A stretch of DNA of 60,000 nucleotides from Lytechinus pictus (lineage: Eukaryota), in NCBI RefSeq assembly GCF_037042905.1, contig NC_087251.1:7814001-7874000 (forward strand). Reading direction: 5' to 3'. Under the pieces are notes generated by a model, which was given only the letters and a program-made list of their open reading frames with translations, had not been told where the DNA came from and did not search any database. The translations under genes were made by a program, and so were the position numbers. Shown here one piece after another: positions 27,401 through 30,400 of this stretch. Numbering within the stretch: position 1 is the first letter of the stretch; each line of letters starts with the position of its first letter.

Positions 27401-30400
27401 GTAATACCAATATCTTTTCAACGTAGCTTGCTTTTTATGAATGACCAGAGACATGCATAATCAGACGTAAACACAAATTAATCGTGCAGTGTGTTGTTAA
27501 AGGAAGAGAAACATGCTGGGCGGTGCAGATTATTGGCTAGTGGACGGAAATCACGTGACATGCCAAGACACAAAATGGGGTAAATATCTTACGAGCGAGA
27601 ATAACTCGTGATTCTCGTGAATAGTAGCGACTCTTGTCCATCCATATTCCTTGATAAGCCTTACTCTAGCAGGGTTATACATCGCATCAGGCATGTAGGT
27701 CCGATAGAACAATGGAAATTTATTCCTATTCGACAAGATTGATGAGGCGGAAGCGTAAGACATCTAAAGAATTGAAGGAATGAAGATAAACATCTACACA
27801 ATTTAAATACACGTTATGAACATATCTGAATCTTACATTAGCTATTGCTTGAACATGAACAAAATAAAACCACCAATTAAACCCAGTAGAATATAGCATC
27901 AATCATTTGATATGCAAAATACTTCTTCAAGTGCATATTATGCTTCAATATTGATTTAATCCTCATTTTTGCCATTCTCAGACAATGTTTTCCTGATCAA
28001 TCTATTAAACATCTAAAATGATTCATATTCAAATTTCATTTGGGAGAACATGTTAATTGATATCCCATGAGGAACATAATCAAAGAATGAACCTCTATAT
28101 AGACGAATCAATATGTATCAGGTTTTATGCTTCAGTGGTTTTATTCTGTATGCATGTATAAAACATGATATACCATCTTACTAGAGAGAATATTTCATGA
28201 TTTTCGTGTAGCGTTGCCACTCGTGTCCAGCCGAAATCTTTTAGAAGTCTAATACGAGTTGGGTTAAATAATGTATCAGGCATATAGGTTCGGTAGAAGG
28301 CTGGATAATCCACCTTGTTGGATAACGCTGGTGATGAAGCTGTATAAGACATCTATAATAAAATCAGGATATCAAGAGTAATCAGTATCACGCAATGGAA
28401 GGTATACAATATAGAGACTATCATTTACTACGACTTATTTTTTGCATAATTGGTGTTAACTTCCTAATGAAAGAATTTTTCTTAGCTATCATAAAATACT
28501 TGAAACCGAAAATCGAAAATCGTTACCTATATTTAATTATGCGTGTATTTTTGTGTTAAAGAAAGATTTCCCCCAGGAATAACTTCCGTTTCTAGACGCA
28601 TCTTATCCCATGTGATTTCCAATTCAAATTGAACTTCAACAGCAACGTTCATTTATTCGATATATAGGAAATGGTTATACCAACTGAAGTCCAATGCGTG
28701 GTTCAAAAATAATAACACATTGTAACCAAGCATTGAAAAGCATAGACACTATCGCTGTTCATCTGACATTTAGTTTGCAAGATGATTAATGAATTACATT
28801 CTGAAGTCCAATGCGTGGTTCAAAAATAATAACACATTGTAACCAAGCATTGAAAAGCATAGACACTATCGCTGTTCATCGGACATTTAGTTTGCAAGAT
28901 GATTGATGAATTACATTCTGTTTTATCGCGTGGTTACAATAAAAGAGAAAATAATATGTAATTCACTCTGTTAACATGTGACCTAACTACTATACATCAC
29001 ATTTTTTTCTTATGTTTCAGATAACATAATATCCAACTATATATCAAATATTCATCCACAAATATTTCCGTGAAGATTTGAAAATTAATTACAGCCGGGA
29101 TTACAGCTCGGTTCATGGGGAAATAGCAGCGCACACTCATAAGATGAAAATTGTCGGGAAAGAATGTTGTATATCCTCGAGTTCATAATTTATATAGGAT
29201 CATTTTTTATCATCTTCTCTAAAAGTTCATTTATTTCTAAGTCTAAATTATAGTGATGATATTTTGTGAAAATTGAAGAAAATAAATGTGTATTTGAATT
29301 GAATGAAAAATTGGACAGGATGAGAGGTTGTATGAACTCTGTCAATCATAACATGCAAAGTTCCAACGCATTGTCTTGGCAATAGCATCATCCAGTTTTC
29401 ATACCCGAGTCATTCCAGAATTCAAGCTACAAGCGTATAAAATGTTTACATTTTTAAAGTAAAAAAATGCAAATTGGAGAAACAAAATCTCCTTGATCAT
29501 GATGACGCGCGCTGTTTAATGGTCGCTGCCATACTTATCTGCACTTATCTTCTTCTCAAGGAATATGAAATAAGAAACAATCTAGAAAAGAATAAAGGCT
29601 GTAATATATCTTCTTTTTTTACCAAAAAGTGATAATTGATTCATACCGTAACAAGATTCCAGTAGTGAGCAGTACCAGCGACAGCTTGAGTTGCAGTAGA
29701 GCATGCTGGGCCAAGAATCATTAACTTCTGAGGTTTTCTGAAGATCTGATCAAAGAGGATCTTAGTTCCTAGACCAGCATCGCACTGTCAAAGGAAATAC
29801 ACATTCAGAGTTCATCATTCTTGTCCACTAAAATCATATCAGTTAGCTTACTGTTCAGTAATATTAAAATGAGCATATACTGCTTCATTATGGCTCTTCA
29901 TCCCTTATGGGAGTGGGTAATACATAAGATAAGTTGCATTATACATGTTATATGGATACTAATATTAGATCTTAAAAGAGACGAGTAAACATCAGAAATT
30001 TCATTTAAACATTGTGAAAGAAATTAATAAGAGAACAATGGTAGGCGTAGCTCAAATCAAAGTTCCCCAGAGCCATCCTCCCTTTTGAAAACTTTGGTAA
30101 GGCCGAAAAAATGTCTCCGTCGGTAATCGAACCCGGGGCCCAGCTTAGAACGCCAAGGCGCGCTGGACCACATAATAGTTTAGTAATAGTGAATAATTTA
30201 CACCAAGAAGTTGACATAAGGTATATCATTAAGAACTATATTTTAGAAGGTACTACCGATCAATGATATCATAATCAGGTAGGAACCTGCCTTTAGAAAA
30301 ACTTTTCAACATCAATCGACCGTGAGATAATGGGTTTTTTTTATATATTTTTTCATAGACAAATGCGTTTTTCTCAAAGGTAATAAAAATCAGTCTTGTA

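Follow-up and report, generated by a model that had tools for sequence, protein, structure and literature searches.

Tandemly duplicated alternative exons encode two versions of a Venus-flytrap pocket segment in a GABA-B-like receptor gene of the sea urchin Lytechinus pictus

The window analyzed here, a stretch of 60,000 nucleotides of the L. pictus genome (contig NC_087251.1, positions 7,814,001 to 7,874,000), contains a minus-strand gene with Pfam domains ANF_receptor and 7tm_3. Its extent was derived from tblastn searches with the RefSeq proteins P0162 (L. variegatus isoform X1) and P0172 (L. pictus isoform X3), whose exons are collinear from 41303 to 2896 at ~90-100% identity. Exon 2 was located by a motif scan; it was not flagged when 150 of the 152 ORFs detected in the introns, all but the first and the last of the list, were scanned with Pfam. 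The features of the gene, in window coordinates and with the sequencing runs in which they were seen joined, are as follows.

2896..41303, minus strand: whole gene, a predicted GABA-B-like class C GPCR with a Venus-flytrap domain (VFT), a degenerate C-type-lectin-like insert, a seven-transmembrane region (7TM) and a C-terminal tail
40893..41303, minus strand: coding part of exon 1, for the signal peptide and the first part of the VFT, with the counterpart of Trp65; residues 1-139 of P0162
29784-29647, minus strand: exon 2, 138 nt, phase 0, CDAGLG...HYWNLVT, with the Cys103, Cys129 and Ser130 equivalents (from sequence, splice sites and PDB alignment)
28352-28182, minus strand: exon 3A, 171 nt, 57 codons, phase 0, pocket loop T-A-S-S-P; in spliced contigs of runs X1 and X2
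28181-27764, minus strand: intron between 3A and 3B, 418 nt, GT..AG; excised exactly so in one contig of run X5
27763-27593, minus strand: exon 3B, 171 nt, 57 codons, phase 0, pocket loop A-S-A-S-S; in spliced contigs
27663..27664, minus strand: internal GT inside 3B (AGA/GTAAGG), at which L. variegatus isoform X3 stops after 33 codons
27452..27563, minus strand: candidate enhancer of splicing, made up of three GCAUG copies (one extended to UGCAUG) that lie 30-140 nt beyond the 3B donor
23276-23175, minus strand: exon 4, 102 nt, phase 0; joined to 3A (runs X1, X2) or to 3B (run X5)

Exon 1 ends at the donor CAG/GTGAGT, and the loose end at 29788 of a run X3 contig continues into its final bases; its Trp aligns with index 18 of the human GABA-B1 VFT chain 4mqe_A. 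The RefSeq loci LOC129265045 (L. pictus, isoforms X1-X3) and LOC121419238 (L. variegatus, isoforms X1-X4) represent the same gene with the same exons. Both are automatic models titled 'uncharacterized protein', without remark on the exon pair, and the L. pictus models carry an N-terminal fusion to a neighboring sphingomyelinase-like ORF.

The original prediction had matched the exon 3 segment to GABA-B1. Its VFT exons are indeed closer to GABA-B1 than to GABA-B2 (E ~1e-13 vs 1e-8 for 3A and 3B; 3e-18 vs 5e-3 for exon 6), with exon 7 being ambiguous, and its 7TM exons are closer to GABA-B2 (6e-18 vs 2e-9 for the TM6-7 exon; 5e-10 vs 8e-4 for the TM2 exon). A canonical GABA-B1-type exon is found elsewhere in the same genome, on another contig (L007, G000 C15); over the exon 3 segment its identity to Xenopus GABBR1 is 40/56, compared with 28/57 for 3A and 27/57 for 3B. 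This better match, the GABA-B2-like 7TM region, the degenerate C-type-lectin-like insert, and the replacement of His170 by Tyr and of Glu349 by Leu rule out a GABA-B1 orthologue. Named relatives, described as GABA-B subunit-like, come from sea stars, brittle star, sea urchins, crinoid, sea cucumber and hemichordates. Judged by these sequence comparisons, the gene is a GABA-B-like class C GPCR of an ambulacrarian expansion, with a GABA-B1-like VFT, a GABA-B2-like 7TM region and a lectin-type insert, and it represents an unstudied echinoderm/hemichordate branch.

Exons 3A and 3B are a tandem duplication. Both are without stop or indel, and both are flanked by AG upstream and GTAAGA downstream. 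They share 113/171 nucleotides and 37/57 amino acid residues, with identities at codon positions 1, 2 and 3 of 40, 50 and 23 (each out of 57). A tblastn comparison of 3A with 3B within the window gives an E value of 2.5e-26 and the next match has an E value of at least 0.77; the window thus contains exactly two copies of exon 3. Similarly, the Pfam ANF_receptor model matches both copies over the same profile region (79-131 for 3A, E 1.3e-11; 79-130 for 3B, E 9.6e-13), and each aligns without gaps to residues 101-156 of 4mqe_A. By the Nei-Gojobori method pS is 0.81, which is saturated, and pN is 0.20, so both copies are under purifying selection, as had been suggested, and 3A must have been retained intact over a long time. 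The predicted anatomy, two 171-nt phase-0 exons 418 nt apart with intact splice sites, holds in coordinates, AG/GT sites and spliced contigs alike, the flanking exons 2 and 4 agree with the original prediction, and the motifs SYTASSP (3A) and SYASASS (3B) had been read correctly.

We then consider splicing in four runs (X1, X2, X3 and X5), the kinds of which are guesses ('RNA?'); we take them to be RNA-derived because their contigs extend over the exons, with joints at GT..AG boundaries. The junctions 2/3A, 3A/4, 2/3B and 3B/4 were all found in spliced contigs, at the exact exon coordinates and with GT..AG ends. A retrocopy as the source of these joined forms was rejected, since a search of the species' own genome returned no second copy at 100% identity. 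The complete 2-3A-4 form is present in two of the four runs (a 5796-nt contig in run X1 and a 1269-nt contig in run X2), the 2-3B junction in two (a 1062-nt contig in run X3, and run X5) and the 3B-4 junction in one (a 738-nt contig in run X5); among the runs of organism A, 3B and exon 4 are never spanned by one contig. An A/G difference exists at position 23274, within exon 4. Contigs show presence and not proportions, and their depth is a poor measure; for what it indicates, the 3A contigs of runs X1 and X2 have mean word depths of 65.6 and 9.47 and are the top-depth contigs there. In the same two runs all pieces that contain 3B are unspliced (depth 2.7 and 4.45), and in run X3 the 3B contig reaches 196.7 vs 25.9 for 3A. 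A single contig, from run X5, joins 3A directly to 3B (27763/28182; CT..AC on the plus strand), and the contigs of that run include no 3A-4 junction. No direct junction of exons 2 and 4 occurs in the contigs of the four runs, which is attributable to missing cover only.

RefSeq isoforms with 3A alone or with 3B alone are modelled in two Lytechinus species: L. pictus isoform X3 is identical to 3A at 57/57 residues, and L. pictus isoform X2 and L. variegatus isoform X1 are each identical to 3B at 57/57. The models also include L. pictus isoform X1 with both exons, L. variegatus isoform X4 with neither, and L. variegatus isoform X3, which is truncated at the internal donor in 3B so that the segment ends in ...YNPAR. 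Mutually exclusive use, as proposed originally, is therefore upheld in part. Both exons are alternatively spliced (2-3A-4, 2-3B, 3B-4); the 3A-3B contig and the both-exon, neither-exon and truncated isoforms speak against strict exclusivity, and the pair is at best 'mostly exclusive, leaky'.

This leakiness raises the question of whether 3A and 3B are independent cassette exons, with all four combinations being made and single inclusion being merely the commonest. Such a scheme would accommodate the 3A-3B junction of run X5, found there without 3A-4, and the three irregular RefSeq isoforms; all combinations are in frame, and no pairing element above chance was detected (see below). However, the long contigs of runs X1 (5796 nt) and X2 traverse 2-3A-4 without a branch into 3B, run X3 bridges 2-3B, a strand-loop-helix-strand unit that is doubled or missing would be unlikely to fold, and the contigs speak for the presence of a form rather than its share. 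We regard independent cassettes as unlikely. With good though incomplete confidence we favor tandem-duplicated alternative exons in an orphan GABA-B-like class C receptor, of which mostly one is used per transcript, exchanging a part of the pocket. Most transcripts would take either 3A or 3B, with the dominant exon differing between samples, and the swap would exchange 57 residues of lobe 1, the pocket loop among them, the largest change falling at the position of GABA-B1 Ser153.

How, then, is the choice made? Because 171 = 3 x 57, every combination keeps the frame, which leaves nonsense-mediated decay (NMD) with no means of enforcing it, and a 418-nt intron exceeds the length at which steric hindrance could be an explanation; both points had been anticipated. 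There is no U2/U12 incompatibility, as both donors read GTAAGA and both acceptors AG. Docking/selector sequences in the flanking introns, another proposed device, did not emerge. The best arms in an inverted-repeat search of the introns are 14-31 nt long, AT-rich and 71-94% complementary, and the best ungapped pairing scores of three intron pairs were equalled or beaten by 30, 38 and 18 of 40 shuffles. Folding of whole introns returned a full-length duplex, which is meaningless. Thus, in the introns of this gene in a single species, no pairing of the Dscam1 exon 6 type was found above chance. RNA pairing, steric hindrance and NMD are probably not what sets the choice; trans-acting factors may do so, possibly through the GCAUG elements downstream of 3B. 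GCATG starts there at 27563, 27516 and 27456, and it occurs nine times in the 6.6 kb between exons 2 and 4 and not at all in the 3A-3B intron. We treat this cluster as a regulatory lead only, as it is post hoc and without comparative support. A frame-preserving exon pair can, it seems, stay mostly but not fully exclusive without obvious RNA pairing.

Within lobe 1 of the VFT, the exon 3 segment runs from one strand through the pocket loop and a helix to a second strand. Two papers (PMC7411975; bioRxiv 10.1101/621060) provided the GABA-B1 agonist contacts for comparison, namely Trp65, Ser130, Gly151, Ser153, His170, Tyr250, Trp278 and Glu349; they list His170, Gly151 and Ser153 as contact residues and ascribe to Ser153 a differential effect on ligand affinities. 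The gap-free alignment to human GABA-B1 places the equivalents of Gly151, Ser153 and His170 within exon 3, which confirms that the segment carries agonist-pocket positions. The Gly151 position is Thr or Ala across 3A and 3B, and the Ser153 position is Ser in 3A (Ser-Ser-Pro) and Ala in 3B (Ala-Ser-Ser). Both copies have Tyr in place of His170, and Glu349 is replaced by Leu. Trp65, Ser130 and Trp278 equivalents are retained, as presumably is that of Tyr250, judged by comparison with the human sequence. Since His170 and Glu349, which contact the amino group of GABA, are both replaced, any functional importance given to the Ser/Ala difference is extrapolated from human GABA-B1. By this analogy, the 3A and 3B isoforms may differ in ligand affinity or selectivity.

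Alternatively, the exon swap might act chiefly on folding, dimer contacts or trafficking, through substitutions in the helix and strands, and not on ligand recognition. Of the 20 differences among 57 residues, 10 fall in the first 18 (the pocket loop) and 10 outside it, and the loss of two GABA contacts makes a classical orthosteric role uncertain. Nevertheless, conservative exchanges (I/V, L/I, D/E, F/Y) account for most of the differences outside the loop, whereas non-conservative exchanges are concentrated at positions 4-18, among them the equivalents of Gly151, Ser153 and Pro155. We consider this alternative improbable as well, and a difference in the pocket remains our preferred reading of the exon swap.

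The history of the two copies is asymmetric. The Ala form of 3B is found in all seven annotated orthologues outside sea urchins, from starfish, a brittle star and two hemichordates (acorn worms), and a 3A-type segment in none of them. In word-index protein searches 3B retrieved six proteins; two such searches with 3A and with the 3A ORF retrieved no close relative. Between L. pictus and L. variegatus, 3A changed at 3/57 residues and 3B at 0/57, which fits weaker constraint on 3A. In poorly resolved trees built from 57 columns, 3B joins the starfish orthologues with support 88/83, leaving 3A outside. An AU test did not reject a clade of 3A and 3B (p 0.22; p 0.11 in a second tree), so the duplication may be older or younger than the sea urchin/starfish split. 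As far as these sequences indicate, 3B is the ancestral, conserved state and 3A a lineage-restricted, faster-changing copy. The original idea of a binding and a non-binding partner is thereby reversed: with Ala in 7/7 orthologues, 3B is the conserved working state and not likely to be a non-binding one. A metagenome scan returned two loci. In L001, which belongs to a more distant paralogue, an exon-2-like segment is accompanied by a single exon-3-like one, and the next 800 nt contain no further copy; the other locus (L002) was irrelevant. Proteins P0001-P0005 and similar ones were rejected as cases of tandem 57-residue inclusion, being multi-VFT proteins with a spacing of ~346 residues.

That only the 3B isoform matters, 3A being a weakly constrained extra included largely through splicing noise, would suit the missing 3A-type segments (0/7), the fruitless word-index searches and the 3/57 vs 0/57 changes, but is very unlikely, given saturated silent sites with pN 0.20, a 3A intact in both species, and 2-3A-4 as the sole spliced form seen in runs X1 and X2, in the longest contig.

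Taken jointly, the pocket and the history permit a bolder reading, which we offer tentatively and think rather less likely to be true than false. Splicing would toggle a ligand-anchoring Ser of class C receptors (GABA-B1 Ser153, linked with ligand selectivity and, as Ser269, with Ca2+-dependent affinity for GABA), so that one isoform has Ser there and the other Ala, with tissues choosing between two pharmacologies, and the sea-urchin-specific copy would re-create the canonical Ser-Pro given up by the ambulacrarian orthogroup. If this toggle is real, the pair constitutes a natural mutant series for de-orphanizing the VFT-lectin-7TM receptor family. More generally, should ligand affinity or ion dependence vary between the isoforms, two receptors would come from one gene, and determinants of selectivity could be sought directly among the 10 loop differences. 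A full-text literature search found no report of alternative VFT exons in GABA-B-type or class C GPCRs. What is gained is modest, since splicing of this kind is a familiar, textbook device and the isoforms are already modelled in the automatic RefSeq annotation.

Mutually exclusive exons derived from tandem exon duplication are the subject of general reviews (PMC9013439, PMC9741552). Like such pairs generally, 3A and 3B are adjacent, homologous, equal in length and phase and anciently diverged, and yield isoforms that differ in one homologous segment; unlike them, the Lytechinus pair is in frame in every combination, and products with both exons or neither are observed or annotated. In FGFR2 (IIIb/IIIc) and in C. 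elegans egl-15 (exon 5A/5B), a swap of exons in the ligand-binding domain is proven to produce a tissue-specific ligand switch. Both genes encode immunoglobulin-domain receptor tyrosine kinases, and UGCAUG-binding Fox proteins take part in regulating the swap. The Lytechinus gene shares with them an exon swap in the ligand-binding domain of a receptor, and the GCAUG downstream of 3B matches the Fox motif, but its product is an orphan class C GPCR for which a ligand switch is inferred. The exclusive exons of insect RDL (3a/3b, 6c/6d) and the flip/flop exons of AMPA receptors tune agonist potency or kinetics. Insect nAChR alpha6 (PMC1919356) similarly has mutually exclusive exons 3a/3b in a neurotransmitter receptor. 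In all three, as in Lytechinus, alternative exons swap part of an extracellular ligand-binding region, although these are ligand-gated ion channels and the sea urchin gene encodes a class C GPCR. Finally, vertebrate GABA-B1 isoforms (1a/1b etc.) differ by N-terminal sushi domains or by truncation, and none is known to exchange part of the VFT pocket; what the Lytechinus gene has in common with GABA-B1 is that one gene gives rise to several GABA-B-type subunits.

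Both alternative exons between exons 2 and 4 of the orphan GABA-B-like receptor gene are as originally predicted: two intact phase-0 exons, 418 nt apart, each preceded by AG and followed by GTAAGA, without stop or indel.

29784-29647, minus strand: exon 2, 138 nt, phase 0
28352-28182, minus strand: exon 3A, 171 nt
27763-27593, minus strand: exon 3B, 171 nt
23276-23175, minus strand: exon 4, 102 nt, phase 0

The two copies share 113 of 171 nucleotides and 37 of 57 residues, with identity at codon positions 1, 2 and 3 of 40/57, 50/57 and 23/57, respectively. Nei-Gojobori estimates are 0.81 for silent differences (saturated) versus 0.20 for replacement differences; the duplication is therefore old and both copies have since been retained by selection, in agreement with the proposal that diverged codons reflect purifying selection on each. 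In Pfam, the two exons hit ANF_receptor at positions 79-131 and 79-130 of the profile. In tblastn searches of the 60-kb window, the sole match of each exon was the other copy (E 2.5e-26), and no third copy was found (next matches E 0.77 or worse); nor was a further tandem exon pair found in the organism's own genome (812 Mb, with the window at C7:7814001-7874000). Tandem repeats are present in intron 2 (28684-28920, 117 nt x 2, 98%), between 3B and exon 4 (25354-25523, 83 nt x 2, 100%) and further downstream (21752-22168, 162-nt unit x 2.2).

A word-index protein search with 3B returned a Lytechinus variegatus protein with 100% identity, in a cluster of RefSeq isoforms from two species. The segment between exons 2 and 4 was excised from each isoform for comparison.

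Exon 3 content of RefSeq isoforms
L. pictus LOC129265045 isoform X1: 3A and 3B in tandem
L. pictus LOC129265045 isoform X2: 3B alone, 57/57 identical to the window
L. pictus LOC129265045 isoform X3: 3A alone, 57/57 identical to the window
L. variegatus LOC121419238 isoform X1: 3B, 57/57
L. variegatus LOC121419238 isoform X2: 3A, 54/57
L. variegatus LOC121419238 isoform X3: 3B codons 1-33, stopping at an internal AGA/GTAAGG
L. variegatus LOC121419238 isoform X4: neither exon

With 3A-only, 3B-only, double, empty and partial forms annotated, the exon pair is real and mostly contributes one exon per transcript, and strict exclusivity is absent. As far as our full-text literature search shows, the pair has no published description, though automatic annotation contains the isoforms.

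Four assembled sequencing runs were aligned over 23000-29900. X1-X3 come from one study on organism A and X5 from a different study on organism B. That the runs derive from RNA is a guess, none being recorded as such; their contig cover sits on exons, with GT..AG at joint ends. Contigs from run X1 (5796 nt) and run X2 (1269 nt) join exons 2-3A-4 and skip 3B. Run X3 has a 1062-nt contig joining exon 2 to 3B, with 3A skipped, and a 180-nt contig with 3A on its own. Run X5 shows 3B joined to exon 4 (738 nt), exon 2-3B and exon 2-3A joints, and a 223-nt contig with exon 2-3A-3B from which the 418-nt intron is spliced out; no 3A-4 joint was seen in this run. A run X5 contig had already led to the inference of exactly those three residue differences that L. 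variegatus isoform X2 shows. A direct joint of exon 2 to exon 4 was seen in none of the four runs, and no single contig spans 3B to exon 4 in runs X1-X3. Mean word depth in run X1 is 65.6 for the 3A contig, with 3B solely as an unspliced piece (2.7); in run X3 it is 196.7 for 3B versus 25.9 for 3A. These values, although contig depth is a poor measure, point to a switch between 3A and 3B among samples. A retrocopy as the source of the joined forms is ruled out, because no second 100%-identical exon copy was found in the own genome.

The original observation is confirmed and its interpretation partly supported, with the 3A-3B joint in run X5 and the RefSeq forms with both exons or neither speaking against strict mutual exclusivity.

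Several features of the region deserve mention. At 23274, the first codon of exon 4 is GCA in the window and GCG in all three junction-crossing contigs (X1, X2, X5), a silent A-to-G difference in the mRNA sense that could be polymorphism, assembly difference or RNA editing. Within the 3B-exon 4 intron, a segment of about 230 nt (23650-23880) stands out in each of the four runs by its very high contig depth, with numerous variants and loose contig ends, and is most likely an expressed interspersed repeat. A single-exon ORF at 52799-54034 (minus; 412 aa, Exo_endo_phos domain) matches "sphingomyelinase C-like" proteins, and in the newer L. pictus models of the receptor (1466 and 1523 aa) it runs straight into exon 2, with exon 1 missing. 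Since a run X3 contig joins exon 1 to exon 2, this fusion probably stems from read-through or faulty annotation. Long ORFs at 15513-16124 and 56139-59033 (minus), judged reverse-transcriptase-like and endonuclease-like by eye from translations, resemble remnants of LINE-type retrotransposons; one lies within an intron of the receptor gene.

The exons are collinear with RefSeq Lytechinus proteins from 41303 to 2896. Similarity is mosaic (minus strand): the Venus-flytrap (VFT) side (16618-41303) resembles GABA-B1, the best human match of VFT exons 3 and 6, and the transmembrane (7TM) side (5418-9055) is much closer to GABA-B2 than to GABA-B1 (6e-18 vs 2e-9; 5e-10 vs 8e-4). GABA-B1b numbering was taken as chain index + 47, an inferred offset under which Trp, Gly, Ser, His, Trp and Glu fall at their proper positions in the alignments. 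The receptor retains Trp65, Ser130 and Trp278, with Tyr at the His170 position in both 3A and 3B and Leu at that of Glu349, where fly GABA-B1 has Glu. A canonical GABA-B1-type exon lies elsewhere in the genome (locus L007, 40/56 identical to Xenopus GABBR1, to which 3A and 3B are 28/57 and 27/57 identical), as does a GB2-type exon (L009/L010). The gene encodes a class C GPCR distinct from GABA-B1, an identity ruled out by the GB2-like 7TM, the Tyr and Leu substitutions and L007. Named relatives are all ambulacrarian and inconsistently labelled "subunit 1-like" or "subunit 2-like". The combination of a GABA-B1-like VFT with a GABA-B2-like 7TM raises the question whether the receptor works as a homomer.

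Between exon 8 (12833-12774, the VFT end) and the pre-TM1 exon lie two lectin-like exons (12064-12264 and 11186-11437, minus), both included in the annotated protein. At ORF level this degenerate C-type-lectin-like insert matches Pfam Lectin_C below the cut-off (E 0.0034); a clear Lectin_C domain occupies this site in the orthologues from Ptychodera (P0011) and Amphiura (P0167). The VFT-lectin-7TM order is unusual among class C GPCRs.

Ungapped alignment of both exons with human LSYGSSSP...FFRTH bears out the predicted correspondence to this GABA-B1 segment, including Ser at the agonist-contact position in 3A, and Ala and no Pro in 3B.

Pocket residues (GABA-B1b; 3A; 3B)
Gly151; Thr; Ala
Ser152; Ala; Ser
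Ser153; Ser; Ala
Ser154; Ser; Ser
Pro155; Pro; Ser

The first 18 residues hold 10 of the 20 differences, and the remaining 10 are mostly conservative. Ser153 is presumably Ser269 of GABA-B1a (116-residue offset). Published work links Ser269 to Ca2+-dependent GABA affinity (PMC2656813), and a review reports that Ser153 mutations alter ligand affinities differentially, with His170 and Trp65 as anchoring residues (PMC7411975). A Nematostella preprint names Trp65, Ser130, Gly151, Ser153 and Tyr250 as critical, and His170 as not conserved in cnidarian homologues (10.1101/621060).

The 3B-type motif S-A-A-S-S-A occurs in each of the seven annotated non-echinoid orthologues (Acanthaster, Patiria, two Asterias species, Amphiura, Saccoglossus, Ptychodera), which have 39-49 of 57 residues in common with 3B and 38-39 with 3A. 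The tree places 3B with the starfish (support 88/83) and leaves 3A outside that group; a 3A+3B clade is not rejected by the AU test (p 0.11 and 0.22 in two analyses). Between the two Lytechinus species 3A has three residue changes and 3B none. Conservation, grouping and rate thus mark the Ala form as the state that has long been conserved, rather than as degenerate or "non-binding", and the suggestion of a non-binding partner is not upheld. Exon 3A is the restricted, faster-evolving copy with canonical Ser-Pro. Two of its three changes (T32A, F40Y) are to the residue 3B has there, which may reflect parallel substitution or gene conversion over a short tract.

As for control of the choice, steric hindrance is excluded by the length of the 418-nt intron, and 3A and 3B alike have U2-type donors. 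NMD as enforcer is also excluded, because every exon combination preserves frame; the expectation that neither would suffice thus holds. The docking or selector pairing envisaged instead was within chance, since complementary arms in the flanking introns scored no better than shuffles (observed score reached by 30, 38 and 18 of 40). Exon choice is probably regulated by trans-acting factors, with leakage. GCAUG occurs nine times in 6.6 kb, never in the 3A-3B intron (i.e. downstream of 3A) and three times at 27452-27563 (minus), 30-140 nt downstream of 3B. This cluster, noticed post hoc, is a lead to candidate Rbfox-type control, for which FGFR2 and egl-15 provide analogues.
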